Below are positions 17,802-45,275 of a stretch of 64,000 bases of DNA, one piece after another. This DNA is from Desulfobacterales bacterium (GTDB taxonomy: Bacteria > Desulfobacterota > Syntrophobacteria > B119-G9): positions 304 to 64,303 of the forward strand of contig JALSTM010000077.1 of the NCBI GenBank assembly GCA_026983715.1. Direction: 5' to 3'. Position 1 is the first letter of the stretch. The number at the start of each line of letters is the position of its first letter. The position numbers and the translations under genes were made by a program. Below the pieces are notes generated by a model, which saw only the letters and a program-made list of their open reading frames with translations, made no database searches and was not told where the DNA came from.

Positions 17802-18058
17802 GAACTATTGCGATTATCGTTTTTAACTTAGGAAAATGGGCAATTTTTGTCAAGTCAAACTGATTTTTATCCTTTTTACAATGTGTTGTTGCAAAAACGT
17901 TTTTCATGGTTTACGATGAAATACTTCTGTTTATATTTATATATTGTTTTTGAATAAGACTTTGTGTTAGAGGTCTACTAACTATTCGTCTTATTCTTTA
18001 GTAAAGGATAGATCAAAATAGATAAATCAGGCAATATTTTCTGCTATAAGGGTGTAAC

Positions 18059-26233: not shown

Positions 26234-27067
26234 TTAATTCTTTGCTTTCCTCCGGGTAAGCCCCACAAGGAAAACCACGCCACTTCCCAGGAGCAAAAGG
26301 GAACCAGGAATGGGAACTGTAGTGGAAACCGGATTTGGAGATTCAAACTCGACTTCACTTAGAAATAGCCAGAACATTCCGTTGTGAGCACTGTTGGAGT
26401 CATTATTCCATAAAATATCAGCGTATTCCCAGTCGTTACCACTTTCTTGTAGTTGACTGAATATATTCCAATTACTAAGAGTGATAGAAATCTCATCGTT
26501 GCTCTGTATATCCAGGCTACCAAGATCGAAGCTTATTTCATGGAGCCTCCCGTTGTTGTACCCGTTATCGGTACCAGACCTTCCTTTTAGAAAAGAACTT
26601 GTAAGCGAAACGAGCTCGGTGCCGTTTCTCTTTATTGAGATTTCTCCCGGATAGACAACGTTAAAGCTATGAATGGCATCCTGGTTGGTCCATAGGTTTA
26701 TTGACGAAAGCTCAAAACTTTGCTGGAAAGAGAAGGTGATAGTGACGGGGTTATTGGCGTAATCTCCTTTGCTTATCCTTCCATCTTGGTCTGCGTTACC
26801 CTGGTAAGAAATGCCCCACCAACCTACCCAATCCTGGTAATCCTCGGTCCAATTATCTTGCCCCCTGATACCATCTGTGAGCTTGGTGTAAGATGAGTCA
26901 TCATAGGTATAGGATCCCCCATTTATCCAGCCGGCATTAGGCTCTCTGGAAAAACTGTAACTTGACGGCATTACTAAGTAAGCATAAGAAGGCACATTCA
27001 ATGCCAAGCCAATTCCCAACAAAAACACTATCAACACTGCTTTTTTTATACTATTTCTTGGTAACAT
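26234..27067 (-). CDS. Secreted PEP-CTERM (exosortase-sorted) protein, variant signal 'VPIPGS-LLLLGSGVVFLVGL-TRRKAKN'
   Basis: N-terminal signal peptide; C-terminal tripartite sorting signal (P-rich motif, hydrophobic helix, basic tail); Ser/Asn/Trp-rich, low complexity. Confidence 0.65.
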   Translation of the reverse strand: MLPRNSIKKAVLIVFLLGIGLALNVPSYAYLVMPSSYSFSREPNAGWINGGSYTYDDSSYTKLTDGIRGQDNWTEDYQDWVGWWGISYQGNADQDGRISKGDYANNPVTITFSFQQSFELSSINLWTNQDAIHSFNVVYPGEISIKRNGTELVSLTSSFLKGRSGTDNGYNNGRLHEISFDLGSLDIQSNDEISITLSNWNIFSQLQESGNDWEYADILWNNDSNSAHNGMFWLFLSEVEFESPNPVSTTVPIPGSLLLLGSGVVFLVGLTRRKAKN

Positions 27068-27352: not shown

Positions 27353-28369
27353 TTATTTCCTTGGCTTCTTGGTGTTATTACAAGGGCTGGATCTTTTCAG
27401 CACTTTTTGAGCGAATGGTGAATTTGAAAGCAAGCTCTCAACTAATCCAAAACTTGAAATTTTACCTGAATACTTGGCTGCCACTCTGATCTGTCCGGTT
27501 ACCCTGCTGGTGGATTCCGGTGACAAAAGATTCGTTCCTTCCTTTTCGGAAGCCAGATTGAAAAATTCGATGACCGGCACAAAATTAACACCACTTTTTC
27601 GAGCCAAATTGCTCAATTCATCAAAGTAGAGAGGAAGCGTGCAAAAGTCCTGTTTTTTCGTTCCTATCCCGTCCTGATAATAGATTGAATCTATGTGCGC
27701 TGATGAAAAAATTTTTCTCCAGAATTTTGCCATCCCAAGCGGGCTTAACTTGCAGTTACTGAAACCGGATATCGCAATTTTAGTACCAGGAGAGACCTTT
27801 TTAATTTCACCCGTAACTTCTTTCAAAAAGAGTAAGAGAACCTTTCTTTTTTCAGGTTTAATCCAATTCGTGTCGTCGATCTCCTGGGGTATGTACCATC
27901 CTGCAAAAGCCGGATGACGGTGCACTAGCGGATAAAGTTCTCTTAGCAGTTGAAGGGAATCATGTGCTAGGCGAGCAAAGTAAATCTTAAGACTCCGGGG
28001 CCTTTCCTTGATTCGTACCCAAAATTCAGGGTCGTGAATTAAGCCGATCTTAAGCTTGATTTGGTTTGACTTTGCAATATCGAGAAAGTCAACCACGGTA
28101 ATCTTTGCAATCATTTTCCTGTAGGGCGTAAAAAAAGGGTTCTTGTTTATGGCTGTCCACTGCAAAATGACTTCTCGTATTCCAACATCATGAAGTTTCC
28201 TGAATATTTTTTCCCAGTCTGACTTCTCCAGGGAACTTTTCTCCTGGTCTAGTTGAATAAATGTAGAGGATATTGAGGGTTCCGCACAAGCCGTACTTGC
28301 TAAAGTACTTAAAATGAACAGCAAAAATATAAGTATGTATTTATTTTGTTTCCCAGTAGCCAATACCAT
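27353..28369 (-). CDS. Secreted hypothetical protein, possibly a glycoside-hydrolase-like TIM-barrel protein; positional analogue of E. coli ybcH
   Basis: Signal peptide (LASTACA/EP); no firm motif; last gene of the wecB-nfrB-nfrA string, 59 nt after the NfrA-like gene. Confidence 0.4.
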   Translation of the reverse strand: MVLATGKQNKYILIFLLFILSTLASTACAEPSISSTFIQLDQEKSSLEKSDWEKIFRKLHDVGIREVILQWTAINKNPFFTPYRKMIAKITVVDFLDIAKSNQIKLKIGLIHDPEFWVRIKERPRSLKIYFARLAHDSLQLLRELYPLVHRHPAFAGWYIPQEIDDTNWIKPEKRKVLLLFLKEVTGEIKKVSPGTKIAISGFSNCKLSPLGMAKFWRKIFSSAHIDSIYYQDGIGTKKQDFCTLPLYFDELSNLARKSGVNFVPVIEFFNLASEKEGTNLLSPESTSRVTGQIRVAAKYSGKISSFGLVESLLSNSPFAQKVLKRSSPCNNTKKPRK

Positions 28370-28428: not shown

Positions 28429-31400
28429 TTAGTAACTGATTATCAGTGTTAGAAAGAATCCATCTATCTTTCTTTTGTCTACTCCCCCTGCAGTCAGTTC
28501 ACCCCGTTTATAGTAAGCAAGTAACTCCGCGCTATGGTGATCGCTTAAGTAACTGGTTCCTCCCCAGAAATACTTCCCTGATATTCCGATACCCCCCTCA
28601 ATAAAAGAACTGTCCTCCCTGTCAGGGGTGTACCATATTCCGTCTGCGATCAAGTGCGGGGTAAGAACAAATTTCGGGTATACCTTGAAGCTCCACCCTT
28701 GTCTTAATTCCCCGTACCAGAGCATCCGGTCACGATGGGGAAAGTAGTAATTGATTTCGCTGTAAAGGTACGAATAATTCCAATTATCTTTTACTGTGTT
28801 CAATTCGTACCCCCTCGACCAATCGTAGAGGCCTCTAACGAGCCAGTTATCTTCAGAGTCGTCGCCGATAGAAAAAAGCCTTTCCATTCCTACCTTGAAC
28901 TTGAGTTTTTTGAAAGGCTTGTATCTTAACCCAATGGCTCCTTGCCAGGTGTCCGAATCGGTGTCCAGGGAATCTTCCCGGAGATTTACAGTGGTTCTGG
29001 CTATCGCCTCCAGAATCCTGTAGTCCCGGAATCCTATCCTAGGTAGAACCCATGTCCCTTCGAACCCCATGGTGCCTCGGGCAAGAATGCGCTCTCCTGC
29101 TCCGAGGGTTCCTCTTTCTATCGTACCGGTATCACCCGTAACAAAAGCGTCCCAGGCGGTGAAAGAAAATTTCTTGGTAAGTGCCGTGATTTCTCTCTTA
29201 TATTTCTCCCGTTTTAGTTCTGCTTCTACTTCGCTTGCCGGACTTCCAAAACAGGTAAGAGGCAGGCAATCAATTGCTTTTTTGAACTTTTCAACCCCTT
29301 CCTCATTCTGGTATGTTTGCATGTAGAGGTATGCTAAATCTGCGTGAAGATCAACCTGGTCAGGGTCTTTCCGAAGAGATTCTTTGAAAGCTGCTATTGC
29401 TTCACGGGGTTTTCCATTTTCCTTGAGAGCATCCCCGTAAGCTGATAGGTATATACTGTTTCTGTCAAGTTCAACGGCTCTTCGGAAAGCTCGCAATGCC
29501 TCGTGCTTTTCACCCAGTTCTTTGTTTACCTTGCCGAGTTCAAACCATGTTTCTGCCCGGTTGCTTGTATTAGTCAATTCTTCCCAGAGAGTTTTTGACT
29601 TTTTGAGTTCCCCGATTTGGTGGTAACATTTGGCCAGTTCTTTTTTCCTCAATATTTGCTTGTCTCGCGACAAAGTTTCCCACGATCCGGAACGAAGAAT
29701 GCTGATAGCCTGGGCAGGCTGTCCTTTTCGAGCTTCAACAATTCCGAGGTACAGTCTTGCAGTGGATGTGTTTCTTATGGAAAGAGCTTCCCTGAGTGCT
29801 TTTTCTGCCTCTTCCAGAGCCCCTTCTTGGAGAGCGAGGTATCCACACTGTTCATAAAGCAGATAGCGTTTTTGGTCATCAAGTAAGCTAGAATCTTTTT
29901 TGCCCAACCTTAGATAATGAAGGGCTACACCAGGCTTTTTCATAAGATAGTAGCTGTTTGCTATGGCTAAAAGTATTTCCGGGCCCTTTTTCATCCTATA
30001 AGCTTCAAGAAAATGTTCTATTGCTTCCTCGTGTAAACCCATGCCATCCAATGCATAGCCAAGGTTCAGCCTGTAACTCACGTTCTTAGGATATTTTTCT
30101 ACCAAGCGATAAAAGTAATCCCTAGCTTCCGAATATTTTGCCTGCTTTAGTTTTATGGTTCCGAGTTGCTTGAAAAGTTCGATTTTAAGCTTCCCCGAGG
30201 TGGCAAGAGTTCTAGCTCGCTCGAGGCTTTTCTCTGCTCCTTCATAGTTACGAACCTCGAACTGTGCATTTGCCATCCCAAGAAGTGCCCTTAATCGGAC
30301 TCGAGCACTCAAGCGCTTCTTGTTTAAAACGTTCCTAAATTGAGAAATGGCTTTGTTCGGTTGACCAAGGCGCGCGTAAAGGTAGCCAAGCTGGAGGTGA
30401 ATTTTCGTTGCCGTGTTCTCACGAAGGGAATTCTCAAGTGCTTTGTTAAGATGATAGAGTGCTTTTTTGGGTTCTTTCGTGTCCAAGTACAAGATGGCCA
30501 GCTCCTGGTGGGCCTCTCCTATTTTCTGTCCCTTTTTACCTGATTTCAGAATATATTCTTTAAGGAGGGGAATTGCTGTCCCGGGATTACCTGCTGCCTG
30601 GTAGCTTGTAGCGGCCATCATGAGAAGTTCATACCTTTTTTTTCCTCCTACCTCAAAAGCTTTAAGGAAATAATCTCCTGCCTTACGATGATTGCCAGTG
30701 TGGGAGTATAGAGTTGCTATTCGAGTAAGTATCTGCGGATCTTTCCCTTTAGTTTTCCTTTCTAGTTGTAGCAAAATCTCTAGTGCCCTTCGATATTTCT
30801 TCTGTTTTTCTAGGGCTACCGCCAGAGATTCCATGGCGGCAGGGCTTTTTTTAAGTTCACTGGCTTTTGAGAGATATAGCTGTGCAAGTTCTGGCTTGTT
30901 AAGTTTCAGGTAAAGCTCCCCTAGAGCCCGATTCGTTTTGTAGTTATCAGGGGCAATTTTGAGCGCATTCTTAAATGCTTCCTCCGCCTTGTCTAGTTTT
31001 CCCAGTTTTTCCTGCTCAAAGCCGAGGTACTGGTATGCAGACAACCTATCGTGTTCTGAAAGCCCAAGTTTGATCGCGTGTTCAAGAGACTCCACTGCTT
31101 CAAGGTCTTTGCCCACGGATCCCTGAAGTATCCCAAGTGCAAGGAAGTATTCCGGTTTCCGGGAAAGCGATGCTGCTTCGGCCATCTCTTCTTCAGCTTC
31201 CACGAGCTTTCCCTGTTTCTCAAGGGTTATAACAAGTTCCCTCATAACCTCGGGATCACGCTTTACTCGGAGTGCTTCCCGGTAGAACTTCTCTGCCAGT
31301 TTCAATTTACCGAGCTTGTATGCCAGGGTGCCCTTTTTTCGGGCAATTTTTACACGTCTTTCATTGTTCGCCGGTGGTAAAGTCACGGAATTAAGAATTT

Positions 31401-32220
31401 TAAAGGCCTCTTCGAAATACCCTTCCTTTTCAAGGTAGGTTACAAGAATCAACCTGGTATCTAGAGCCGGGTTTAATTCTATGCTTTTCTTAATCAACTT
31501 GATTGCCCTTTTGGTTTCTCCAAGGGAGTCCGCCATGACGGCAATCTTTTTAAGGGCAATGGGATCCATGGAATATTTTAAAGCAAGATGCGACAACTTG
31601 GAAATTGCCAAATCTTTTTGAGATGTGGCGGCAAGAGCTTTGATCTCCAGCAAGCTAAGGTCAAGATCTTTCTCTCGTTCGGGGAGCTTTTCAAGAAGCC
31701 TAAGAATTCTCTTGTAATCAGCTTGTCTTGCGAGAATAAAAAGGGCGTTTTTGAGTGCCCTGTTCTTTGTGGTAGGCTCCCTTGCGGTCGAAACCACGTC
31801 TAAAAAATCTTTTAAGGCTGCACTTGTTTTCCCAATCTCGCTGTACGAAGTTCCCCTGCACAGAAGTGCGTTAACTTCGTGGGGATCATGGCTTAAAATG
31901 ATAGTAGCCTGGGAAATTGCCTGGTCGTATTTCTTCAAGTTGTAGTATTGGTACATCAGTGTTAGCCTTGCCCGGTCATCCAGCGGCTTAATTTTAAGGT
32001 ATTCTTTTAATTCCTTTATGGCTTCTTCATACTTTTCTTCTTTTATGAGGCGATAAGCCATGTCAAGATGCGGATAACTCTTGAACTGTTTGATTTCCCT
32101 GGATATCCATCCTCCGTTGTTCTTTTCTTTTTCCTTGGCTGACACGGAAAAAGAGACATAGACAAGGCTACTGGTTAGAAGCAGAAAAAAGACCCAAAAT
32201 ATTTTTAAATGCTTATTCAT
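28429..32220 (-). CDS. NfrA/PgaA/BcsC-like outer-membrane exopolysaccharide export protein: signal peptide, very long TPR array, C-terminal beta-barrel
   Basis: 1263 aa; many TPR units; last ~300 aa are Gly/aromatic-rich alternating strands ending in aromatic residue '...LTLIISY'; overlaps the upstream GT2 synthase gene by 8 nt. Confidence 0.7.
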   Translation of the reverse strand: MNKHLKIFWVFFLLLTSSLVYVSFSVSAKEKEKNNGGWISREIKQFKSYPHLDMAYRLIKEEKYEEAIKELKEYLKIKPLDDRARLTLMYQYYNLKKYDQAISQATIILSHDPHEVNALLCRGTSYSEIGKTSAALKDFLDVVSTAREPTTKNRALKNALFILARQADYKRILRLLEKLPEREKDLDLSLLEIKALAATSQKDLAISKLSHLALKYSMDPIALKKIAVMADSLGETKRAIKLIKKSIELNPALDTRLILVTYLEKEGYFEEAFKILNSVTLPPANNERRVKIARKKGTLAYKLGKLKLAEKFYREALRVKRDPEVMRELVITLEKQGKLVEAEEEMAEAASLSRKPEYFLALGILQGSVGKDLEAVESLEHAIKLGLSEHDRLSAYQYLGFEQEKLGKLDKAEEAFKNALKIAPDNYKTNRALGELYLKLNKPELAQLYLSKASELKKSPAAMESLAVALEKQKKYRRALEILLQLERKTKGKDPQILTRIATLYSHTGNHRKAGDYFLKAFEVGGKKRYELLMMAATSYQAAGNPGTAIPLLKEYILKSGKKGQKIGEAHQELAILYLDTKEPKKALYHLNKALENSLRENTATKIHLQLGYLYARLGQPNKAISQFRNVLNKKRLSARVRLRALLGMANAQFEVRNYEGAEKSLERARTLATSGKLKIELFKQLGTIKLKQAKYSEARDYFYRLVEKYPKNVSYRLNLGYALDGMGLHEEAIEHFLEAYRMKKGPEILLAIANSYYLMKKPGVALHYLRLGKKDSSLLDDQKRYLLYEQCGYLALQEGALEEAEKALREALSIRNTSTARLYLGIVEARKGQPAQAISILRSGSWETLSRDKQILRKKELAKCYHQIGELKKSKTLWEELTNTSNRAETWFELGKVNKELGEKHEALRAFRRAVELDRNSIYLSAYGDALKENGKPREAIAAFKESLRKDPDQVDLHADLAYLYMQTYQNEEGVEKFKKAIDCLPLTCFGSPASEVEAELKREKYKREITALTKKFSFTAWDAFVTGDTGTIERGTLGAGERILARGTMGFEGTWVLPRIGFRDYRILEAIARTTVNLREDSLDTDSDTWQGAIGLRYKPFKKLKFKVGMERLFSIGDDSEDNWLVRGLYDWSRGYELNTVKDNWNYSYLYSEINYYFPHRDRMLWYGELRQGWSFKVYPKFVLTPHLIADGIWYTPDREDSSFIEGGIGISGKYFWGGTSYLSDHHSAELLAYYKRGELTAGGVDKRKIDGFFLTLIISY

Positions 32221-34456
32221 TTTCCTGTTCCCGTATCATTTCATCAAGGTAGGATTCTGAAAGCAATCCCAGCCGAACGAGAAGTTCTCCGAATTTTGGA
32301 GTTTCGAGTTCCTGGTGTTTCAATATATGTTCTAAATCTGACCTGGTTATCAGGCCCTTTTCAACCAGATATTCACCAAACCGAACCCTCTCCACTGCTT
32401 CATCAAGGTATTCATCCAGTGCTGACTTGAGTTCCTCACGCGTTACGAGTCCTTTATTTACAAGGATTTCCCCCAGGCGCTTATATGCCTTTTTTTGCAT
32501 TCGTGCAGCTTTGCGAAGGTCTTCTTCCGCTACTTTTCCTCGCCTGAGAGCAATTTCTCCGATCCTTGACCTGGGTTGCTTTTTCGTTAATCTTTCGTAT
32601 CCTTTCCGAATAGCGAGACTTATGTCTCCATGTGTGACGAGCTTTAGCACTATGGGCTTTCCCACCTGGTTTTCCAGTTCCGATAAAACCTCCCTTGGAA
32701 GAAGGGTTTCCGTGCCTACCTCTATTGCCCCTTTACTGGAAATTCCTATAGGGAAGACGCTATATTTGATTGCGAGCCTTCTGGGGAATTTTTTAAGGAG
32801 GTCAAGCGGGGTTTTATAGGGGTCGATTTCAGCGATTTCAAGGCCAAACTGTTGTCCCAGGGCTTGGAGCAAAATGTTTTCTGATACAAATCCCATATCC
32901 AGGAGAATTTTCCCGAGAAGCTCTTCTTTTTCCTTTTGTATCATAAGGGCTTTTTCAAGTTGACCGAGGGTTATAAACCGTTTTTCTATCAAAAGGTCTC
33001 CTAGGCGCTGTCGGTAACCTCTGAGTTCTTCCTCGGTGGGATAAACGTGTTCTGTCTTCTCCCAGGGAATAATTTTTCCTGTTGCCTTGTACCTTGCGTA
33101 AATCCAGATTGCTCGAATAGTTGCGAAAAAATTTACACAGTTTGACCACGGAAGGCGAGGTATGGCCAAGAGTGCCTGTGCAGGCCCGTACATGTTCCAC
33201 ACGCAGCAAACCCTCCAAGTTAATCTCCAGCAAAGGAAAAAGAGGTTAATCAGAAGGAGAGTCCAAAGTAGTGTGCCAGGGGAAATCAAGGGAGGATAAT
33301 GGTAAGCGGAAGGGTTTTTCCACTCGTAGATAAAGAGGCCTATTATAAAAATTGCAAGCACATTTCCCAGCAGGTTAATCTGGTTGGTGATGAGAGACTT
33401 TCTATCCCGATAGAGCATAAACTTGTTCATGAAACTTCCGTACCAACCAACATAAGACCATCCCTGCAAGGCGATTCCAACGACCCAGCGGGATTTCTGT
33501 CTCACTGCATCCGTAAATCTTTTCGGAAAAAATTCCTGTACCGCTATGTACTCCTTCTTTTTTTTCTTTTGGATTTTTCCATTTCTCGGGAGCGTGATTT
33601 CTCTCTCAATGGCTTTCCTGACAAAAATCTGCTCCAGGTTAAACTCGCCCATCTCGAGACCCAGTTCGTAGTCTTCGGCGAGAGAGTGTACGTTTAGAAT
33701 TTGGCCCCTGTTCTTTTCCCGCAGTAGTTCAACGGTTCTTCTGCTAAGCGCTGTGCCGACACCGGCAGAAGGCAGTATTTTGGTTAAACTTTCCCGGACC
33801 ACGAGATCACGGGTATGGTTTTCTGCAAATTCGTCCAAGTAATGGTTTCTCGTAAACTGATACCATTCCCCTGCAATCGGTAAAACCGGAAGCTGGATCA
33901 TGTCCTTGCGAGGAATTAGGTAATTGAAAAGTTTAAGAGTCAAGGGATGTAATATGTCTTCTGCGTCTTCTATCACGAAAATCTCGAACTTCCTGTCATG
34001 TTCTTTTTCGTATACCCGGATTCCTTCAAACACCCAGTTTAGACAGTCCGCTTTGTTCGTAGGACCATTCTTAGGGCAGGTTATGCGCTCTACGTTGTCG
34101 TAATGCTCGCGGACAATATCTATTTCTTTTCTTGTTTCCGGGTCATTGGGGTAGGTGCCCACAAAGATTGTATAGTTACTATAGTTTAGGGTCCTTAATG
34201 TGTTTTCAACCATGTTCCTAATAACAGCACTTTCATCCCAACAGGGGATCAAGATTGCAACCGGTTTCTCAGGAACACCCTGCAACTGCCTTTCATCTAG
34301 TGGTTTGTACTTTTTCATCACGAAGAACTTCCTGTATAGAGTCCTAAATATCCAGTACAGATCGATGGATAGTTCCTCGATTCCGTTCCACGTAAAGACT
34401 ACTCCGCAGACTATCAGGAGTATCTTGGTAGCTAGTAGTATATAAGCCATGATCAT
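32213..34456 (-). CDS. NfrB-like inner-membrane family-2 glycosyltransferase (EPS synthase) with C-terminal GSPII_E_N/MshEN c-di-GMP-binding domain and four further tandem MshEN motifs
   Basis: N-terminal TM, GT2 core (ILIPCWDE...DAED...), 4-6 TM block, then 'RLGDLLIEKRFITLGQLEKALMIQ' plus 'RIGEIALRRGKVAEEDLRKAARMQ', 'RLGEILVNKGLVTREELKSALDEY', 'RFGEYLVEKGLITRSDLEHILKHQ', 'KFGELLVRLGLLSESYLDEMIREQ'; 747 aa versus 745 aa for E. coli NfrB. Confidence 0.75.
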   Translation of the reverse strand: MIMAYILLATKILLIVCGVVFTWNGIEELSIDLYWIFRTLYRKFFVMKKYKPLDERQLQGVPEKPVAILIPCWDESAVIRNMVENTLRTLNYSNYTIFVGTYPNDPETRKEIDIVREHYDNVERITCPKNGPTNKADCLNWVFEGIRVYEKEHDRKFEIFVIEDAEDILHPLTLKLFNYLIPRKDMIQLPVLPIAGEWYQFTRNHYLDEFAENHTRDLVVRESLTKILPSAGVGTALSRRTVELLREKNRGQILNVHSLAEDYELGLEMGEFNLEQIFVRKAIEREITLPRNGKIQKKKKKEYIAVQEFFPKRFTDAVRQKSRWVVGIALQGWSYVGWYGSFMNKFMLYRDRKSLITNQINLLGNVLAIFIIGLFIYEWKNPSAYHYPPLISPGTLLWTLLLINLFFLCWRLTWRVCCVWNMYGPAQALLAIPRLPWSNCVNFFATIRAIWIYARYKATGKIIPWEKTEHVYPTEEELRGYRQRLGDLLIEKRFITLGQLEKALMIQKEKEELLGKILLDMGFVSENILLQALGQQFGLEIAEIDPYKTPLDLLKKFPRRLAIKYSVFPIGISSKGAIEVGTETLLPREVLSELENQVGKPIVLKLVTHGDISLAIRKGYERLTKKQPRSRIGEIALRRGKVAEEDLRKAARMQKKAYKRLGEILVNKGLVTREELKSALDEYLDEAVERVRFGEYLVEKGLITRSDLEHILKHQELETPKFGELLVRLGLLSESYLDEMIREQENE

Positions 34457-35673
34457 AAATTCAATTTCAGTTTCATATTGGTTTCTGTCTTCCCAGTTCG
34501 TCGAGAAAAATCAGGAGATGAAAATTGCTCTTCAGCCTCAAGCAGGGGAGCGACTCCACGACTAAACCTTTCGATGGCAAGCCTTATGCGCCTACTTGCA
34601 TGTCCGTCACCAAAGGGGTTAGGCATATCGAAACAACGAAAACGCTTCTCGGTATCCAGAATCTTCATCACTTCTTCGACGATTCTTTTCCTGTTTCTCC
34701 CTGCCAAAACACCACGATTTTGATATATAATTTCAGGACGTTCAGTGTGATCCCTCAGTATTACTAAGGGCACGTTATAATATGTTGCCTCTTCCTGTAT
34801 TCCGCCTGAATCTGTCATTGTGAGAGTTGAGTTCTTGAGCGTGTATAACGTGTCCGGGTAATCCAAAGGTTCCAGGAGGTGAACTCTCCTGTTTGGCTCT
34901 AGAATCGATTTCACAGTTGCTCTAACCCTCGGGTTCATGTGTAGCGGGAAAATAAATTCGACATCAGATCGAAGTGAGCTTATTTCATTTATGGCATCGC
35001 AAATATTGCGGAGAGGCTGCCCCCAGGATTCCCGACGATGAGATGTTACGAGTATAATCTTATTGTTACCCTGGCTTAGATTATGGATAAATCTTTTGAT
35101 GTTCACCGATGCAAACTTCTCCATCTTTTTGATAGCATCTATGACCGGATTGCCGGTCACATAGATGGTGTCTTCAGGAATTCCTTCGGTTAAGAGGTTT
35201 TTCTTAGCTGTAAGAGTTGGTGCAAGGTGCACACTTGTAATGGTACTTATTAGCTTCCTATTTCCTTCCTCGGGATAAGGACTATACAAGTTGTGTGTAC
35301 GCAAGCCGGCTTCAACGTGAAATACTGGGATCTTGCAATAATAGGCTACAAGGGCTGAAGCGAACGCACTGGAAGTATCTCCCTGCACAAGAAAGATATC
35401 AGGTGCTAAATCCGCTATAGCAACATCCATTTTCATTGTAATTCGCGAGATAATCTGGTTGAGTGATTGTTGATGTTCCATGATTCCAAGATCTATGTCG
35501 GGGGTTATGTCAAAGACTTTTAAAATGCGTTGTAACATGTCGTTGTGTTGCCCCGTGGTTACAACAAGCGTTTGAATGTCTCCAGATTCTTTCAGGGCTT
35601 TAATTACAGGACCCAGTTTTATCGCTTCGGGCCTGGTGCCGACGGCAACAAGAATTTTTGGTAGAGTGGTCAT
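34453..35673 (-). CDS. wecB: UDP-N-acetylglucosamine 2-epimerase (non-hydrolysing), WecB/MnaA (NfrC equivalent)
   Basis: 'KILVAVGTRPEAIKLGPVIKAL', 'HVEAGLRT', 'DSGGIQEEA' motifs; 4-nt overlap (ATGA) with the downstream GT2 gene. Confidence 0.9.
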   Translation of the reverse strand: MTTLPKILVAVGTRPEAIKLGPVIKALKESGDIQTLVVTTGQHNDMLQRILKVFDITPDIDLGIMEHQQSLNQIISRITMKMDVAIADLAPDIFLVQGDTSSAFASALVAYYCKIPVFHVEAGLRTHNLYSPYPEEGNRKLISTITSVHLAPTLTAKKNLLTEGIPEDTIYVTGNPVIDAIKKMEKFASVNIKRFIHNLSQGNNKIILVTSHRRESWGQPLRNICDAINEISSLRSDVEFIFPLHMNPRVRATVKSILEPNRRVHLLEPLDYPDTLYTLKNSTLTMTDSGGIQEEATYYNVPLVILRDHTERPEIIYQNRGVLAGRNRKRIVEEVMKILDTEKRFRCFDMPNPFGDGHASRRIRLAIERFSRGVAPLLEAEEQFSSPDFSRRTGKTETNMKLKLNL

Positions 35674-36204: not shown

Positions 36205-36783
36205 ATGTTAGAAGCTCTTATAACATCCAAAACACGTCTCCGTGTTCTAATGCGTTTGTTCTTAAATCCTGAACAAGAGGTGTATATAAGGAAACTTGCC
36301 TCCGAGTTTGGAATATCATCAAATCTTGCAAGCGAAGAATTTCATTCGCTAAGCAAGGCGGGATACCTCGTTAGCAGAAAAGACGGAAGGCAAATATTTT
36401 ATCGAGCAAATACTAAGCACCCTCTTTTTCCGGAAATTCATTCAATGGTAAGAAAAGCCATTGGGGTTAAGCATATCGAGGAAATTATTTTGAAAAAACT
36501 GGGCAACGTTGAACAGGCTTTCGTTGTCGATGACTATGCTGAGGGAAGAGATACGGGAGTTATTGATTTGGTTATAGTTGGTGATATTAATAGAAGTAAT
36601 CTGAACAACTTGGTAGAAAAGACCGAAAGGCTCATTAAAAGAAAGATACGTTCACTAGTGCTGGATAGAAAAGAATTTTTGAACCTAAAAACATATTTTG
36701 CCGATAGGCCAAAGTTGACGCTTTACCCTTTGGGTTTTGAGTCCCTGGAGATCCCTTCTGGAGAAATCACGCTAAACGCTTAA
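36205..36783 (+). CDS. Winged-HTH (ArsR-like) regulator fused to a nucleotidyltransferase-like domain
   Basis: N-terminal wHTH (IRKLASEFGISSNLASEEFHSLSKAGYLVSRKDGRQIFYR); C-terminal 'GVIDLVIVGD' Pol-beta-like NTase signature. Confidence 0.5.
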   Translation: MLEALITSKTRLRVLMRLFLNPEQEVYIRKLASEFGISSNLASEEFHSLSKAGYLVSRKDGRQIFYRANTKHPLFPEIHSMVRKAIGVKHIEEIILKKLGNVEQAFVVDDYAEGRDTGVIDLVIVGDINRSNLNNLVEKTERLIKRKIRSLVLDRKEFLNLKTYFADRPKLTLYPLGFESLEIPSGEITLNA

Positions 36784-38173: not shown

Positions 38174-39271
38174 ATGAGATCTTACTTCAAAGACAAACGT
38201 GTTCTTGTTACAGGAGCTTGCGGAACTGTTGGTCGTGAGCTTGTCCGTCAGTTGTTGGAAAACTACGGCGTCAGCGAACTTGTTGCTCTTGATAATAATG
38301 AAACCGAACTTTTTATTCTTGAAGAACGTCTTTCAAGTTATAGTAATAGTTCTTTCTTTTTAGCCGACATCAGAGACCGTGACAAACTTTGCCGCAAAAT
38401 GCAACACATGCATATAGTCTTTCATACTGCTGCATTTAAACACGTTATCATGTGTGAACGTTCACCTTTCGAAGCGGTACAAACTAATATCCTTGGTGTC
38501 AACAATATCATTTATGCGGCCTTAGAAAACAAAGTTGAACGGGTAATTTTTACAAGCTCAGATAAAGCGGTAAACCCAACAAACGTCATGGGAACTTCCA
38601 AGCTTATGGGTGAGCGTCTTATGACTGCAGCTAACGGTAATCTGCGAGATGGGCGTCAAATATTTGCTTCAACCCGGTTTGGAAATGTGTTGGGTTCCCG
38701 AGGTTCAGTGATACCTATTTTCCGTGAGCAAATTCGACGAGGTGGCCCTGTAACTCTAACGGATCCATCGATGACGCGGTTTATAATGAGCGTGCAAGAG
38801 GCAGTGAGGTTGGTTATTGAATCAACCTTTCTTGCAAGAGGTGGAGAGGTTTTTATCACCAAAATGCCAGTGATGCGAATACAGGACCTTGCTAAGGTCA
38901 TGATAGAGGAATTGGCTCCGGTTTATGGGTATCACCCGGACGAGATAGAAATAAAGCTGATCGGTGTAAAAGCGGGCGAAAAAATGTACGAGGAACTCAT
39001 GAACCATGAAGAAACAAGAAGAGCAGTGGAACTAGAGCGTTACTTCGTGGTTTTACCCGCATTCACAGGTCTTTACCGCAAAATAGATTATTCATATCCT
39101 ACTACTCTTTCTACCCATGTAACAAATCCTTATAATTCCGCAATTGAAAAGCCTCTTTCAGCCGACGAACTTCGACACTTTCTCGTAGAAAACAAACTCT
39201 TAGAGGAAGATTTGTACACTTATCGTCATCCTGCAAGACGTTATTGGCCGAACGAAAAAGAGGGTCAATGA
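38174..39271 (+). CDS. UDP-GlcNAc 4,6-dehydratase, PseB/FlaA1/CapD family (extended SDR)
   Basis: 'VLVTGACGTVGREL', 'DKAVNPTNVMGTSKL', 'RFGNVLGSRGSVIPIF', 'MTRF' match the PseB/FlaA1 pattern. Confidence 0.8.
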   Translation: MRSYFKDKRVLVTGACGTVGRELVRQLLENYGVSELVALDNNETELFILEERLSSYSNSSFFLADIRDRDKLCRKMQHMHIVFHTAAFKHVIMCERSPFEAVQTNILGVNNIIYAALENKVERVIFTSSDKAVNPTNVMGTSKLMGERLMTAANGNLRDGRQIFASTRFGNVLGSRGSVIPIFREQIRRGGPVTLTDPSMTRFIMSVQEAVRLVIESTFLARGGEVFITKMPVMRIQDLAKVMIEELAPVYGYHPDEIEIKLIGVKAGEKMYEELMNHEETRRAVELERYFVVLPAFTGLYRKIDYSYPTTLSTHVTNPYNSAIEKPLSADELRHFLVENKLLEEDLYTYRHPARRYWPNEKEGQ

Positions 39272-39323
39272 AGTATTCTTGAGAGCTACTAGGAGTGGTT
39301 CCCGTCTACTCAGAGGTGGTTTT

Positions 39324-40514
39324 ATGAAAAAACACATACTTATACTTGGCGGTGATGGCTATCTCGGTTGGCCCACTGCCATGTATTTCTCTAACCGAGA
39401 TTATAAAGTAACAGTTGTAGATAACTATTTCCGGAGAAATGCTTGTACGGAACTTGACGTGGGCATGCTTTACCCGGTGCCGACTTTGATTCAGCGTGCC
39501 AAAATCTGGTATGATCTCACAGGAAAAGAGATAAAAGTGGTGATCGGTGACCTTACCGATCCTGAACTTATGCGGGCACTATTTGATGGTACCATAGTTT
39601 ACAATTGGGCTGTCAACCCCGAGTTTACCGGGGTGCCGGAGACTGTCATTCACTATGCCGAACAACCCTCTGCTCCCTATTCCCTTATTAATTACAAGTA
39701 TGCAAATATAACTATCAAAAATAATCTCTTGGTAACTAACAACCTTATGTTTGCTGTTCGCGATTATTCTTCTGATACTCATATCATAAAGCTAGGCACC
39801 ATGGGAGAGTACGGAACGCCAAACATTGACATAGAAGAAGGGTGGATTGAAATTGAGCACAAAGGTCGCAAGGATAGGTTCCTTTTTCCTCGCCAGGCCA
39901 GTTCGCTTTATCATACCACTAAAATAATGGATACAGATCTTCTTTGGTTTGGTGTAAGAATGTGGAATCTGCGTGTTACTGACCTTATGCAAGGTCCGGT
40001 TTACGGAATAGAGACGGAGGAATCAAAACTAGATCCGCGTTTACGCACCCTTTTCAACTATGATGAAATTTTCGGTACAATACTTAATCGTTTCATCGTG
40101 CAGGCTGTGGTGGATTATCCTTTAACTGTCTATGGAAAGGGAGGACAGACTCGTGGTTATCTGAACATCAATGATACGCTACAGTGTGTCCACATGTCAG
40201 AAATAACTCCGGCTCAACCTGGTGAACTTCGCATTTTTAACCAAATTATGGAAACTTTTTCAGTTAATGAATTGGCTGAAAAAGTTTGTAACGTGGGCAG
40301 ATCTCTTGGGTATAATGTCCGGGTCAACCATATCGATAACCCCCGTAAAGAAGCTGAAGATCATTACTATAATCCGACGTATCAAGGTTTAATAGAAATC
40401 GGAGTTAAGCCTCACTATCTCACCAAAAAAGTTTTACTAGAAATGTTCCAAATAGTTGAGCAGTACAAGGAGAACGTTAGAACTGACGTTATTTTTAGAG
40501 GGATTAAGTGGTAA
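39324..40514 (+). CDS. sqdB: UDP-sulfoquinovose synthase homolog (SQD1/SqdB/Agl3 family); start at the ATG with RBS (MKKHILILGGDGY)
   Basis: About 400-aa extended SDR; recalled SQD1 blocks 'GGDGYxGWxTA', 'KLGTMGEYGTPNIDIEEG', 'LTVYGKGGQTRGYL', 'FSVNELA', 'NPRxEAEEHYYN' all present. Confidence 0.75.
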   Translation: MKKHILILGGDGYLGWPTAMYFSNRDYKVTVVDNYFRRNACTELDVGMLYPVPTLIQRAKIWYDLTGKEIKVVIGDLTDPELMRALFDGTIVYNWAVNPEFTGVPETVIHYAEQPSAPYSLINYKYANITIKNNLLVTNNLMFAVRDYSSDTHIIKLGTMGEYGTPNIDIEEGWIEIEHKGRKDRFLFPRQASSLYHTTKIMDTDLLWFGVRMWNLRVTDLMQGPVYGIETEESKLDPRLRTLFNYDEIFGTILNRFIVQAVVDYPLTVYGKGGQTRGYLNINDTLQCVHMSEITPAQPGELRIFNQIMETFSVNELAEKVCNVGRSLGYNVRVNHIDNPRKEAEDHYYNPTYQGLIEIGVKPHYLTKKVLLEMFQIVEQYKENVRTDVIFRGIKW

Positions 40515-40648
40515 TTTTAGCAATTGATAAATGGTTATACTCTGATGAAGGTAGTCCCCGGTACGGGTAAGCAATTTGTAAATCTTGTCATGCCATACTA
40601 ATGAATGGTCTCTTTTGATTGATAGTGATCAACCGGATAGTTGGTTAA

Positions 40649-41950
40649 GTGGACTTTGCGCGTAAAGTTGTTAATACGGCGGGTGCAACATTCATTGTTC
40701 GCATATTGGGTTTGGCTGGATCTGTTGTGCTCGGCCGATTACTTGGACCTGAAGGACTGGGAGTATACAGTATACTCCGGGCTATTCCATCTTTCCTTGT
40801 GGCTTTAACATGTGTGGGACTACCAACTGCCGCAGTCTACTACGTTTCTCGCGAACCACAAAATCGACCTCAGATAACTGCGACACTATTCTTTTATGCT
40901 ATAGTATGTGGAAGTATTATCGCCATAGGGCTCTGGATTTCGAGTCCCCTTTTAAATAAGCTCTATTTCAAAGGAGTCTTGAAAGGCTCTTATTTTGTGC
41001 TTCTTAGTTTCCTTGTGCCTTTTATGCTGTTTGTGAGGCTCGGAAGTGCAATACTGCAGGGACTGTATCGGATTACGGAACGAAATGGTGTGGAGATCCT
41101 CCTCCGTACCGTTCTAATACTAGGTTATTTGGCGCTAGTATGGCTGGTAAAGTGGCACATTTTTGGTGCGTTAACAAGCTTAGTTATAGCTCATTGTTTA
41201 ACTGCATTTTACGTTCTATTTTTTGTTAGGCGTGATATAAAATTTACTGTTAGCCGAAATTTCGCAATAATACGTCGTATGTTCGGATATGCCCTGTCGG
41301 CCTTCCTTGGACAGTTTCTCGAACAGATGGAGGGAAATATCATCTTCTTAATACTCGGAATGTTTATCGAATCGGCAAGTCTTGGCTTATTTGCCGTAGC
41401 AATAGCGCTTGGTGGCTTTGTATTATTTCCAAGTACCGCTATAGCGAGACCAATGCTTCCGAGACTAGCGCGAATGGATGAGAAAGAAGCTGGTCGCGCA
41501 TTTATTCAAGTGATACAGGTCGGTCTGATTCTATCCACCCTCACAGCAGTTGCTGTTGTTGTAATTGCACCATATGCGGTTCCTTTGTTGTATGGTTCAA
41601 AATTCAATGGCGTCACAAGAATATTGATCGTCTTGCTTCCGGGGTTTATAGCAGGGGCAATGTTGAGCTTTGTTAGGGTGTATTTTTTGAGTACCGGGAA
41701 ACCCCTCTGGAGAATGTACATGAGCATGTTTAGAGCTGTGTTACTGTTGGTCTCAATCGTAGTGGGAGGAATCAGTGGGGGAATACTCGGGGCGGCAATT
41801 GGTATGACGGTGGGGTTGATTATCACCTTGTTCGGAGCCTTGTGTTTTATTTTTTGGTATAATCCGATTATTGAGTTTCGAGATATGATAGTTGCCTGGA
41901 CAGCAACTGTAACCTATGTCAAGGCATTTATCGGCAGTAGAAAAAGATGA
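40649..41950 (+). CDS. Polysaccharide biosynthesis flippase (MOP/Wzx family)
   Basis: 433 aa, about 12 TM; N-terminal 'VVNTAGATFIVRILGLAGSVVLGRLLGPEGLGVY' typical of PF01943/Wzx proteins. Confidence 0.7.
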   Translation: MDFARKVVNTAGATFIVRILGLAGSVVLGRLLGPEGLGVYSILRAIPSFLVALTCVGLPTAAVYYVSREPQNRPQITATLFFYAIVCGSIIAIGLWISSPLLNKLYFKGVLKGSYFVLLSFLVPFMLFVRLGSAILQGLYRITERNGVEILLRTVLILGYLALVWLVKWHIFGALTSLVIAHCLTAFYVLFFVRRDIKFTVSRNFAIIRRMFGYALSAFLGQFLEQMEGNIIFLILGMFIESASLGLFAVAIALGGFVLFPSTAIARPMLPRLARMDEKEAGRAFIQVIQVGLILSTLTAVAVVVIAPYAVPLLYGSKFNGVTRILIVLLPGFIAGAMLSFVRVYFLSTGKPLWRMYMSMFRAVLLLVSIVVGGISGGILGAAIGMTVGLIITLFGALCFIFWYNPIIEFRDMIVAWTATVTYVKAFIGSRKR

Positions 41951-42054
41951 CTGAAGCCATACGTAACTAAAATGGCAACTTCTGAAAAAAGACTGAAGCT
42001 TCGGACTGACGGTTTTTTGTTGAGAACTTCACAGGAAAGAAATGTGTTAAGTGT

Positions 42055-43113
42055 ATGGAAACGGTGGGAATAGATCCAAGAAGCTACAAACACATCTATG
42101 TTTATGGTACTCCTAGAGGTGCAACTAACCTTTTTTGCGCATTACTTCATAATCATACAAATATAGTTGCTATTAATCATAGATCGACGAGAAAGTATCT
42201 CAATCATTTAATAGAAACGAAACGATCGGCTGAAAGATCTCACTGGTTATTCAATATAAAGGACCTAATTTATGAAAAAGGTGGCCCAGCAAAAGATTTT
42301 ACGTGCATTTCTTATATCCTGTTTGACAAGGTTCACTGGGCATCTGATCGTGCCTTTCAACATGTTGAACTCACCCTGTCACGAGTTCGGTCTGGTCTTG
42401 CTGATGGTATCGTCCTAATCCGCCATCCGCTTCAGGTCCTAAAATCAATGGACAATTTCCACCGACGTTACGGACGTCCCAGATGGGCTCTTACACGCTT
42501 CAATGTACTTCGTTACTTGGTGCAGTATTTTTTACCCCAACTGTGGCTTCTAAAAATTAAGGGAATATATGGAATTGTAGTAGAAGCTTTCGTTAAGAAT
42601 TTGCCTTATAGTTATCGGGATCTATGTGAAAAACTCGGGATACCGTTTGAACTTAGATTTGCTGATTTTCGCTTGACTTTTGAGGATGCGCTAACATGGA
42701 CAGGTGGTAAGTTTGTAATACGGAAATCTGAAGTTGTGGGGGGAGGTTCGTTCTTGACCTCCAAAAGTATAAAAGCACCTGCTCAAGATGTTTATTTTGA
42801 CCCGATAAGCGGTGAGCCCACGTGGGGTTATGGCCAGTTTAATCCTGCGTTACCATTAAATCCTGAAAGACTAATGAGAAGTAATGAGAATTTTGATTTA
42901 CCTACTAGCAGCCTCATTAGGGAAGTATTCTGTAAAGGAATTTCAAAAAAAGATGTGGATTACCTTTTTGAAACAAGATTGTTGGACGTCGAAAGGCTTC
43001 GGGAGTTTGACATGAAGGGAATCGGAAACATTATGTTTCATCTGTTGAATCGATTTCCGCCACCGAAGTGGTTGCAATGGTCCTGGAAATATTTGCGTTC
43101 AAGACCTTATTGA
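42055..43113 (+). CDS. Putative sulfotransferase-fold protein
   Basis: Possible 5'-PSB P-loop 'YGTPRGATNLF' and 3'-PB-like 'LIRHPLQVLKS'; no TM; sits between the flippase and the NeuB-like gene. Confidence 0.4.
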   Translation: METVGIDPRSYKHIYVYGTPRGATNLFCALLHNHTNIVAINHRSTRKYLNHLIETKRSAERSHWLFNIKDLIYEKGGPAKDFTCISYILFDKVHWASDRAFQHVELTLSRVRSGLADGIVLIRHPLQVLKSMDNFHRRYGRPRWALTRFNVLRYLVQYFLPQLWLLKIKGIYGIVVEAFVKNLPYSYRDLCEKLGIPFELRFADFRLTFEDALTWTGGKFVIRKSEVVGGGSFLTSKSIKAPAQDVYFDPISGEPTWGYGQFNPALPLNPERLMRSNENFDLPTSSLIREVFCKGISKKDVDYLFETRLLDVERLREFDMKGIGNIMFHLLNRFPPPKWLQWSWKYLRSRPY

Positions 43114-43190
43114 AAGTTCTTGCATATAGGTGGTAGGTTCACATTTTTAAGTACTATCTCGGAAAGCGTGTATACAAAGGAGGAGAAAGG

Positions 43191-43997
43191 ATGGAGCTTA
43201 TAGCGGAAATAGGTTGGAATCATATGGGGGATTTCCAACTGTTAAAGAAGATGGTAAGAGCAGCGGCTGAAGCGGGTGCTACATATGCTAAGTTTCAAAC
43301 ATGGAGAGTAAAAAATCTCAAGCCTGGTCCATGGGACGAGGATGGACGTAGAGATATTTATAAAGCCGCTGAGCTAACGACGAGTGATTTTTTTAAAGTT
43401 AAGAGAACTTGTGAAGAACATGGTGTTAATTTTCTGACCAGTGTTTTTAATCCGGAAGATTTAGAAGATATGGCCCGTGTATCAGACGAAGCCATAAAGA
43501 TTCCCTCTCCAGAGGTCGCAAATATTCCTCTTTTGGAAGGAGCCGGGAAATTGTTCAAAAAGGTTTACCTTTCAACCGGTGCTAGTACTGAAGAAGAATT
43601 AGACCAAGCGATTGATATACTTAGATCTTTAGACTGCGAGTTAACGTTACTTCATTGTGTTTCTATCTACCCGTGCCCTGATGATAAAGTTAATCTCCCG
43701 AGGATCAAAAGACTAAAAGAGAAACATTCTCGGGTGGGTTTTTCCGATCATACTCCCGATAATTTGAGTGCTCTGTTCGCTATTGCACTGGGAGTTGACT
43801 GCATCGAGAAACACTTCACCATTGATAAAAACCTCCCGGGCAGGGATAATCGTTTCGCCCTGTTGCCTGATGAGTTTAAAGCTATTGCAGATGCTGCAGC
43901 TCGTTATGAGCTCATGTCACATGACTTAGGTCTCGAATTTCAACCTGAAGAAAAAGAACAGCGTGAAATCTATCGGGGTAGATGGAGTGGGAGGTAG
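43191..43997 (+). CDS. NeuB/PseI-family sugar-phosphate (PEP) condensing synthase, TIM-barrel only, lacking the C-terminal SAF domain
   Basis: 'IAEIGWNHMGDFQLLKKMVRAAAEAGATYAKFQTW' N-terminal signature of the N-acetylneuraminate synthase family; 268 aa versus about 340 aa for canonical NeuB. Confidence 0.7.
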   Translation: MELIAEIGWNHMGDFQLLKKMVRAAAEAGATYAKFQTWRVKNLKPGPWDEDGRRDIYKAAELTTSDFFKVKRTCEEHGVNFLTSVFNPEDLEDMARVSDEAIKIPSPEVANIPLLEGAGKLFKKVYLSTGASTEEELDQAIDILRSLDCELTLLHCVSIYPCPDDKVNLPRIKRLKEKHSRVGFSDHTPDNLSALFAIALGVDCIEKHFTIDKNLPGRDNRFALLPDEFKAIADAAARYELMSHDLGLEFQPEEKEQREIYRGRWSGR

Positions 43998-44003
43998 AAC
44001 CAC

Positions 44004-45275
44004 ATGTCGAGAAGAAACCCCAAGGTTACTATAGTTGTGCGCGCCAAAAATGAAGAGTTCTGGATAGGGAAGACGCTTGAACAGATAAACCGCCAGACGT
44101 TCCAGGATTTAGAGGTTGTCCTCGTAGACAGTGGGAGTACGGATAGCACCGTTTCAATCTTTCGCAATTATCGACCAAAAGATTCAGTAGTTGATTTGAA
44201 GGACTTTAAGCCGGGGAAAGCCATCAATGTTGGTATTGAGGCCGGTAGAGGTGAACTGATAGTTGTGCTTTCAGCTCACTGTGTACCGGTGGATGAGAAT
44301 TGGCTTGCTAGCTTCATAAAAGTTATGAAAAACGAAAAAGTGGCAGCTGCATATGGCAGACAACTTCCGTTGCCCTCTTCACACCCGCTGGATAAGCGAG
44401 ATTTACTGAACATTTTTGGTATTGAGGCAAAAATCCAGAAAAAAGACACGTTTTTTCATAACGCAAATAGTATAATTCGCCGTGAGATTTGGGAGCAGGT
44501 ACCCTTTGATCCAGATGTTTCTCACATAGAAGATCGTTTGTGGGCTCAAAAAATTATTTCTATGGGCAAGTACATCGCTTATGAACCAGATGCGGCTGTT
44601 TATCATCACCATGGTATTAATCATTACTCTGACCTCAAGAGAGCAGAAGTCATTTCTGATTTGCTTGTCCGCAGTACCATGATCAATGGCAATGAATATC
44701 CTGAATATTTGAAGCCCGAAAATGAACCAATCCTCTTCTGCTTGTTAGGGCATAACCGAGATGTTCACGATCGGTATGTTCCTATTATTCAACAGGTTTC
44801 AAAGAAATTTCAGAAATCAAAAGTCCTAGTTAATACCCGTGTTCCAGAAATGCTATCGGATTATGATGTTATAGCAGTACCTAGACTAGATAGTGAAGAT
44901 CATCTGACTTTTGTGGACATATTGGCAAAAATGATGAATTGTGCGCATTTAGATGGTTTCTTCCCAAATTGCATCGTGTATCTTAACCCAAAGCTTGAGG
45001 GTTTGAATGTAGATATGGTCCATGATTTGGTAGTTCAGTATTATAGAGGGATGTATGATTCCGTCTTTTTTGCCAGGGAAGAGTATAATAATTTATGGGT
45101 AAAAAAGGGAGATACTTACAAGCAACTTATGGCGGATTACGCTCCTAGAGCAGAAAAAACGCCTATACTTGTGGCTCAATATGGATACGGAACAGCTACG
45201 AAGCCACAGTTTATCAGATCACGTGATTTTGTTGGTCCCAAGGTTGGGATTATCCGTATCAAGGAGGCAAGATGA
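44004..45275 (+). CDS. Family-2 glycosyltransferase with about 200-aa uncharacterised C-terminal extension
   Basis: GT2 N-terminus 'VTIVVRAKNEEFWIGKTLEQINRQTFQDLEVVLVDSGSTDST', DxD-like 'EDR'; C-terminal half has no recognisable motif. Confidence 0.7.
   Translation: MSRRNPKVTIVVRAKNEEFWIGKTLEQINRQTFQDLEVVLVDSGSTDSTVSIFRNYRPKDSVVDLKDFKPGKAINVGIEAGRGELIVVLSAHCVPVDENWLASFIKVMKNEKVAAAYGRQLPLPSSHPLDKRDLLNIFGIEAKIQKKDTFFHNANSIIRREIWEQVPFDPDVSHIEDRLWAQKIISMGKYIAYEPDAAVYHHHGINHYSDLKRAEVISDLLVRSTMINGNEYPEYLKPENEPILFCLLGHNRDVHDRYVPIIQQVSKKFQKSKVLVNTRVPEMLSDYDVIAVPRLDSEDHLTFVDILAKMMNCAHLDGFFPNCIVYLNPKLEGLNVDMVHDLVVQYYRGMYDSVFFAREEYNNLWVKKGDTYKQLMADYAPRAEKTPILVAQYGYGTATKPQFIRSRDFVGPKVGIIRIKEAR

Follow-up and report, generated by a model that had tools for sequence, protein, structure and literature searches.

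How many sites for cyclic di-GMP (c-di-GMP) does the sensor tail of a polysaccharide synthase carry? This question is raised by an nfrB homologue in a 64,000-nucleotide stretch of DNA (the window) from a Desulfobacterales bacterium (contig JALSTM010000077.1, positions 304 to 64,303). The gene (32213..34456, minus strand; an open reading frame [ORF] matched by NCBIfam NF008411) encodes a 747-aa protein with a glycosyltransferase family 2 (GT2) synthase domain, transmembrane helices, and a c-di-GMP sensor tail at its C-terminus. Escherichia coli has no MshEN protein other than NfrB, which serves there as the model for MshEN-controlled polysaccharide synthesis and for production of the phage N4 receptor. 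NfrB has so far been treated as a GT domain with a single MshEN domain. Here we show that the tail of the window protein contains three MshEN_N units that are homologous 53-residue modules. The sequence of these modules points to one obligate c-di-GMP site and, likely, one additional site.

The tail contains three MshEN_N modules

An initial annotation of this locus described the region 33007..32228 (minus strand), which maps exactly to residues 484–743 of the ORF, as a full MshEN domain followed by four extra motifs, and counted these as a five-motif array. The complete MshEN domain (residues 484–620) and the four extra motifs, which are present as quoted at residues 631–744, both hold up by the evidence given below. 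The count needs to be revised because two motifs already lie within the full domain, which brings the number of 24-residue MshEN motifs to six (M1 to M6). They form three 53-residue MshEN_N modules at residues 484–536, 631–683, and 692–744. The 24+5+24 spacing, with the canonical 5-residue spacer, is exact in all three.

All features of the tail are on the minus strand. Module 1 (32849..33007; M1, residues 484–507; M2, residues 513–536) is the best stretch for NF053729, the NCBIfam c-di-GMP_motif model, and matches profile positions 1–53 of 53. It is followed by an MshEN_C subdomain of the T2SSE_N-type alpha/beta kind (residues 537–620; 32597..32848) that matches positions 1–84 of 90 of the Pfam MshEN profile (PF05157) and is predicted by AlphaFold2 (AF2) to contain both strands and helices. 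Module 2 (32408..32566; M3, residues 631–654; M4, residues 660–683) and module 3 (32225..32383; M5, residues 692–715; M6, residues 721–744) come next, with a gap of 8 residues between them, and the protein ends 3 residues past module 3. The extra motifs start at residues 631 (RIGEIALRRGKVAEEDLRKAARMQ), 660 (RLGEILVNKGLVTREELKSALDEY), 692 (RFGEYLVEKGLITRSDLEHILKHQ), and 721 (KFGELLVRLGLLSESYLDEMIREQ). The MshEN_C subdomain is present after module 1 only, and AF2 predicts only helices in modules 2 and 3. Because neither of these is followed by an MshEN_C (T2SSE_N1) subdomain, they count as bare MshEN_N modules and not as complete MshEN domains, and the layout of the tail is MshEN_N - MshEN_C - MshEN_N - MshEN_N.

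The strict and relaxed regular expressions of Wang 2016 were too rigid for these motifs. The strict expression matches one of them, and the relaxed expression matches three of six here and between zero and four in homologues. Profile searches were therefore used instead. As a reference set we took the best 120 homologues from a search of 5.8 billion proteins, which together with E. coli NfrB make 121 sequences, and built a hidden Markov model (HMM) solely from module 1 of the 120 homologues. This module-1 HMM matched the tail in register at residues 631–680 (independent E-value, 8e-9) and 692–737 (4.5e-8), that is, in modules 2 and 3. The C-terminal 127 aa scored 58.8 bits, compared to 10.8 bits or less in 2000 composition-matched shuffles. 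NF053729 matched the whole protein with 140 bits in three stretches. Residues 621–747 alone scored 97.9 bits against a cutoff of 38, in two stretches, and the best stretch of this C-terminal fragment was residues 692–744, which covers the profile end to end (1–53 of 53).

The same region also matches another Pfam family. Residues 630–690 (32387–32569, minus strand) align with profile positions 31–81 of DUF4388 (PATAN domain) with 33.9 bits (gathering threshold, 25 bits), and most homologues carry a precomputed DUF4388 match over module 2. It is possible that the helical insert of PATAN domains resembles MshEN_N.

Predicted fold of the tail

The AF2 model of residues 621–747, made from an alignment of 30 sequences, has a predicted local distance difference test score (pLDDT) of 88.3 and contains eight helices, arranged 4+4. 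When it was compared with the PDB by Foldseek, the best matches were 5htl (Vibrio cholerae MshE) and 8pdk (PilF GSPII-B), both of which are complexes with c-di-GMP. The matches extend over 57–58 columns with a root-mean-square deviation (rmsd) of 1.3–1.6 Å and a probability of 0.97–1.0; they cover one bundle and do not distinguish module 2 from module 3. The Foldseek E-values of this 127-aa model did not reach significance (0.8 to 3), owing to the short aligned unit of 57 residues, and we relied on rmsd, probability, and the ranking of the matches.

The model of the larger part of the tail (residues 472–747) has a pLDDT of 88.4 and a predicted template modeling score (pTM) of 0.80. The full MshEN domain of MshE (5htl) can be superposed on the first 140 residues of this model (TMt, 0.83 over 140 columns), in agreement with the complete domain of the initial annotation. 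All three modules are modeled as four-helix bundles, and the pTM of 0.80 suggests that the four subdomains of the tail pack as one body rather than as beads on a string. No solved NfrB structure was found among the PDB sequences.

Ligand determinants differ between the modules

In V. cholerae MshE, mutation of the Gly at motif position 3 (G11, G40) abolishes c-di-GMP binding, each of the conserved hydrophobic residues (L2, L17, L21) is worth more than 10-fold in affinity, and the loss on mutation of Arg or Gln stays below 5-fold (Wang 2016). An isolated MshEN_N binds c-di-GMP with a Kd of 0.35 µM (Wang 2016). The Gln at position 24 forms hydrogen bonds to the ribose and phosphate of the ligand. 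As a determinant test we asked for Gly 3 and hydrophobic residues at positions 2, 17, and 21 in both motifs of a module.

Gly 3 and a hydrophobic residue at position 2 are kept in all six motifs of the window protein (Gly 3 of modules 2 and 3: G633, G662, G694, and G723). Module 3 has a complete set of determinants (R692/F693/G694, L708, L712, and Q715 in M5; K721/F722/G723, L737, I741, and Q744 in M6) and passes the test throughout. When the twelve ligand positions of each module are considered, module 3 is canonical or conservative at 12 and module 2 at 10. The two deviations in module 2 are A651, which replaces Leu at position 21 of M3, and Y683, which replaces Gln at the end of M4. The hydrophobic triad of M4 (L661/L676/L680) is intact, and A651 is the only position at which module 2 fails the test. 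The position-24 Gln is present as Q654, Q715, and Q744. In M4, Tyr is the norm at this position among the homologues, and Gln is found in just 2%.

In module 1, residues L485, G486, G515, and L533 align with L490, G491, G519, and L537 of E. coli NfrB. These four E. coli residues have been mutated in N4 infection studies, and G491, the counterpart of G486, is required. One near-identical database protein (P0001; Logan/ENA, 30-kb contig) differs from the window protein solely by G498S, at a non-determinant position of M1.

The determinant set is intact in module 1 of all 120 homologues, in module 2 of 49, and in module 3 of 59, and 27 homologues have all three modules intact. With the determinants of modules 2 and 3 kept in this fraction of sequences, selection preserves the helical bundles more strictly than the ligand sites that they carry.

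The spacer between M3 and M4 is near-invariant in three-module homologues (Q-R-x-x-Y-x-R-L-G-D; QKKAYKRLGE at residues 654–663 here). The spacer of canonical MshEN_N modules is not conserved, and the canonical module also lacks the conserved Tyr of module 2. The near-invariant spacer and the Tyr at position 24 of M4 suggest that module 2 has a family-specific role.

Distribution of the modules across the NfrB family

Nearly all of the best 120 homologues are 740–785 aa long and cover the query end to end. Exactly three modules were matched by the module-1 HMM in 103 of the 121 NfrB sequences, and the homologue consensus of the extra motifs is canonical (for example, RLGDILVEEG.. and RLGEFLVENGYITQEQLEQALELQ). 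Three modules in the tail are the usual condition across a large NfrB clade, of which the window protein is a typical member. The expansion is not peculiar to this protein, and a degenerate form of it occurs in E. coli NfrB.

A species-level scan, with one genome per species, yielded 80 loci (L002–L081); at those with a complete 8-kb flank, the NfrB ORF begins near position 8001. Three modules were found at 15 loci (Desulfovibrionales, some Acidobacteriota, and Binatia) and two modules at 28 (Verrucomicrobiota, Kiritimatiellia, and Terriglobia), where the ORF ends directly past module 2. One module was found at 25 loci (Nitrosomonas, Methylococcaceae, and others); most of these proteins end after the bare MshEN_N and one ORF is cut by the end of its contig. 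The remaining 12 loci (Methylobacter and Thiomicrorhabdus; again one contig-cut ORF) have no module. On a rough neighbor-joining tree of the GT domain, the classes of module number are largely clade-structured, and the truncated forms fall within three- and two-module clades. In two-module proteins, the second module fits the module-2 profile best in 22 of 27 cases (23 counting L079, whose first module likewise scored best as module 2); this test of module-2 versus module-3 orthology is only indicative, as gaps at the C-terminus of the global alignment left only 5 sequences in the module-3 HMM taken from it.

ORFs with a GG[DE]EF motif (778–1052 aa) occur no more than a few kb from the nfr genes at seven of these loci (L011, L024, L043, L050, L071, L073, and L081) and are directly adjacent to them at most of the seven. 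L011 has a second such ORF of 319 aa. These ORFs were identified by the motif only. By analogy with DgcJ in E. coli, they would fit local c-di-GMP signaling.

The gene and its surroundings in the window

The 747-aa protein matches NF008411 (NfrB) over residues 3–727 with 663 bits, below the equivalog cutoff of 1170, and with 632 bits it passes the cutoff (537) of NF012033 (PRK15489, 'glycosyl transferase family protein'). On these scores it is best described as a distant NfrB orthologue rather than an enterobacterial equivalog. Its N-terminal 384 residues are 76% identical to a protein from a Desulfobacterales metagenome-assembled genome. The GT2 catalytic domain (residues 65–375; 33332..34264, minus strand; Pfam Glyco_tranf_2_3, 6e-29, and Glyco_trans_2_3, 1e-23) contains all of the processive GT2 signatures, namely the Asp of DxD (D164), the Asp of the TED region (D262), and QxxRW (Q320-x-x-R323-W324). 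These residues are invariant in all 121 sequences and align with D169, D267, and W330 of E. coli NfrB. The GT domain is linked to the tail by two hydrophobic, transmembrane-like segments (residues 354–380 and 389–414; 33215..33397, minus strand; Kyte-Doolittle scan), a pattern that agrees with the published topology of E. coli NfrB.

The gene belongs to a tightly packed wecB-nfrB-nfrA-ybcH operon on the minus strand. The wecB/nfrC homologue (34453..35673) encodes a UDP-N-acetylglucosamine 2-epimerase (TIGR00236, 405.8 bits with a cutoff of 210; Pfam Epimerase_2, 8e-106) and has a 4-nt overlap with the start of nfrB. The nfrA homologue (28429..32220), which has TPR repeats and an NfrA_C outer-membrane barrel (Pfam NfrA_C, 6e-20, and many TPR families), has an 8-nt overlap with the nfrB stop. 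It is followed by a gene for a ybcH-like DUF4434 protein (27353..28369; Pfam DUF4434, 6e-42; NCBIfam PRK09936, 1e-35, below its cutoff). The synteny recurs in most of the 80 related loci and does not depend on module number. The co-encoded WecB (TIGR00236, 406 bits) is consistent with a supply of UDP-N-acetylmannosamine (UDP-ManNAc).

Elsewhere in the window, a second MshEN protein (16068–17804, minus strand) is a 579-aa secretion or pilus ATPase of the T2SSE type (Pfam T2SSE, 498 bits; MshEN, 82 bits) with a canonical motif, RLGELLLRESLISMEQLDKALEDQ, at residue 20. The nfr operon is flanked by ORFs of 192 aa (36205–36783, plus strand) and 277 aa (26234–27067, minus strand), neither of which has a Pfam match at E ≤ 1e-4, and the same is true of a 352-aa ORF at 42055–43113 (plus strand). 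A separate surface-polysaccharide cluster at 38174–46000 (plus strand) includes a CapD/PseB-like Polysacc_synt_2 dehydratase, an epimerase, a flippase, a NeuB-family synthase, and a GT2.

A candidate second c-di-GMP site and the alternatives to it

The reading that we favor, although with confidence that stands only midway between doubt and belief, is that the window protein is an NfrB-type, c-di-GMP-controlled GT2 synthase of exopolysaccharide in which module 1 is the obligate sensor, module 3 is a second site, and module 2 is weak or structural. The role of module 1 would follow from homology with the E. coli mutants. Module 3 would most likely bind a second c-di-GMP because it keeps every ligand-contacting determinant. 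Module 2 would bind c-di-GMP weakly or not at all, because A651 replaces Leu and Y683 replaces Gln, and would probably act mainly as a structural or coupling element. The tail, placed directly after the transmembrane helices, would relieve inhibition of the GT2 domain upon ligand binding. The GT2 domain would polymerize a ManNAc-type sugar from UDP-ManNAc supplied by WecB, NfrA would export the polymer, and YbcH would be auxiliary. We infer these steps of activation, polymerization, and export from the E. coli system. Two sites of differing affinity, as in PilF, would widen or sharpen the response to c-di-GMP. The multivalent binding proposed in the initial annotation thus survives in part. 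Module 3, with all of its determinants, is in its favor, and A651 and Y683 of module 2, together with the 49 and 59 of 120 homologues with intact determinants, speak against it.

Several points weigh against a second site. Binding of c-di-GMP is a prediction for the window protein as well as for all three-module NfrB proteins. The consensus is an insufficient predictor of binding: GSPII-A of PilF is a copy that does not bind, and giving it back the MshEN consensus sequence did not regain binding. Across the homologues, c-di-GMP binding is not the constraint that maintains modules 2 and 3, because their determinants survive in only 49 and 59 of 120. E. coli NfrB is functional though both of its extra modules are apparently dead (Gly to Leu or Ala in module 2; Gly to Gln in M6). 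That the tail is coupled to the GT domain is wholly inferred. Finally, no GGDEF ORF was found in the window, which leaves it with no diguanylate cyclase gene.

The main rival, which we hold to be a serious yet lesser possibility, is that modules 2 and 3 are ligand-free helical scaffolds and that only module 1 binds c-di-GMP. Such scaffolds would link module 1 with the GT domain, bring about oligomerization, or offer a docking site to a partner, for example a diguanylate cyclase; in E. coli, DgcJ contacts NfrB. This would explain why 103 of 121 sequences keep three modules even though the determinants are intact in far from all copies of modules 2 and 3 and in every copy of module 1. It also agrees with E. 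coli NfrB, which keeps the skeleton with dead motifs, with the existence of a non-binding homologue in PilF GSPII-A, and with the packed assembly indicated by the pTM. The near-invariant M3-M4 spacer and the M4 Tyr are likewise atypical for a pure c-di-GMP site. By contrast, the 12 and 10 canonical or conservative ligand positions of modules 3 and 2 in the window protein speak against a scaffold, as does the NF053729 score of the C-terminal fragment, 60 bits over the cutoff, and isolated MshEN_N modules are known to bind c-di-GMP.

A fully multivalent, cooperative receptor, with three ligands per protomer and either ultrasensitive activation or c-di-GMP-driven oligomerization, is possible but less likely, and we regard it as rather improbable. 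The exact 24+5+24 spacing of all modules, the Gly 3 and hydrophobic position 2 of all six motifs, and the 27 homologues in which all three modules pass the determinant test are in line with three sites. However, A651 takes the place of a Leu of the triangular cluster, where single hydrophobic mutations cost more than 10-fold, and Y683 takes the place of the Gln that bonds ribose and phosphate. PilF, with three motif-bearing domains, binds only two ligands. Last, a chance resemblance, in which a Leu/Glu-rich helical tail fits a loose motif, has a negligible probability: the region is helical, with a high content of L, E, K, and R, and the strict regular expression matches a single motif, but the profile matches and the shuffle control rule out a chance or low-complexity origin, independent profiles match in register, the region is conserved across phyla, and the modeled fold agrees with MshEN_N.

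Beyond the favored reading of the window protein, we tentatively propose, as an idea more doubtful than that reading, that NfrB-type synthases are multi-site c-di-GMP sensors in which evolution has repeatedly adjusted how many MshEN_N modules (0 to 3) are live. If this is true, exopolysaccharide synthesis by three-module forms like the window protein would show a threshold or a graded response, set by two or three ligands per protomer, and these ligands could also drive c-di-GMP-dependent assembly of the synthase. The single-site E. coli protein would then be a decayed exception that misrepresents regulation in the family. The distribution of the modules suggests that the usual tail of the family is an MshEN domain plus two further MshEN_N bundles, and many non-enterobacterial NfrB proteins, the window protein included, appear to keep at least one further intact predicted c-di-GMP site. 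The enzymes with zero, one, two, and three modules form a natural series for asking how the second-messenger sensitivity of a synthase is set.

Comparison with known systems

The closest comparison is with NfrB of E. coli K-12 (b0569), the c-di-GMP-activated glycosyltransferase of the Nfr, or N4-glycan-receptor, system. The two proteins (745 and 747 aa) are collinear over their full length and share 35% identity (262 identical positions in a 753-column alignment). They have in common the GT2 catalytic residues, the transmembrane segments, the c-di-GMP residues of module 1, and an nfrB-nfrA-ybcH operon with overlapping genes; wecB is inside the operon in the window and elsewhere in the genome in E. 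coli. Homology extends position by position through the last 115 residues. However, module 2 of E. coli NfrB has lost both RLG glycines (AML, LFA), M6 has become SMQ, and only M5 (PLGKFLVTEGVISQETLDRVLTIQ) is still canonical among the extra motifs. NF053729 gives the E. coli protein 66 bits in two stretches, compared to 140 bits in three stretches for the window protein. The tail of E. coli NfrB is the three-module tail in decayed form. Wang 2016 lists NfrB solely as 'Glyco_trans_2_3 - MshEN' (Suppl. Table 4), with a single MshEN, and no prior description of extra NfrB modules or of an NfrB structure was found in the literature searched, which agrees with the initial annotation that the extra modules had not been described for NfrB.

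PilF of Thermus thermophilus likewise has three MshEN-type pairs of c-di-GMP motifs, of unequal conservation, on one polypeptide, and phmmer aligns residues 484–682 of the window protein with PilF 167–357. Its three GSPII domains bind two ligands (6 nM and 460 nM) and one copy does not bind. PilF differs in that it is an assembly ATPase of type IV pili whose N-terminal copies are each a full GSPII domain with N and C subdomains. In the window protein the first copy alone has an MshEN_C, the others consist of a four-helix bundle only, and the output domain is a GT2 synthase in the membrane.

Bare MshEN_N modules in tandem, without T2SSE_N1/MshEN_C and in this respect like modules 2 and 3, are known from the (MshEN_N)2 proteins, such as Cyanothece cce_1044, Geobacter lovleyi Glov_2742 with the architecture (MshEN_N)2-CheX, and Myxococcus xanthus MXAN_7396 (Wang 2016). 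Compared by their described architecture, these differ from the window protein in that they stand alone or are fused to CheX or to a REC-cyclase, and Wang 2016 lists none of them behind a complete MshEN domain of a glycosyltransferase. A bare MshEN_N on a protein of a polysaccharide pathway, as here, is also found in the EpsG-type tyrosine kinases of Methylobacillus (MshEN_N - AAA_31), and positions 3–53 of the TIGR03029 profile match module 3 with 50 bits when searched on the C-terminal fragment. These kinases have a single N-terminal module on a bacterial tyrosine kinase and not a synthase tail.

Together, these comparisons place the three-module tail, which is real and apparently unreported for NfrB, as a variation on a known theme. 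A multi-module MshEN receptor as such has precedents: the principle is already shown by tandem MshEN_N modules and by PilF with its triple domains, and the NfrB tail is neither a new kind of domain nor a new mechanism.

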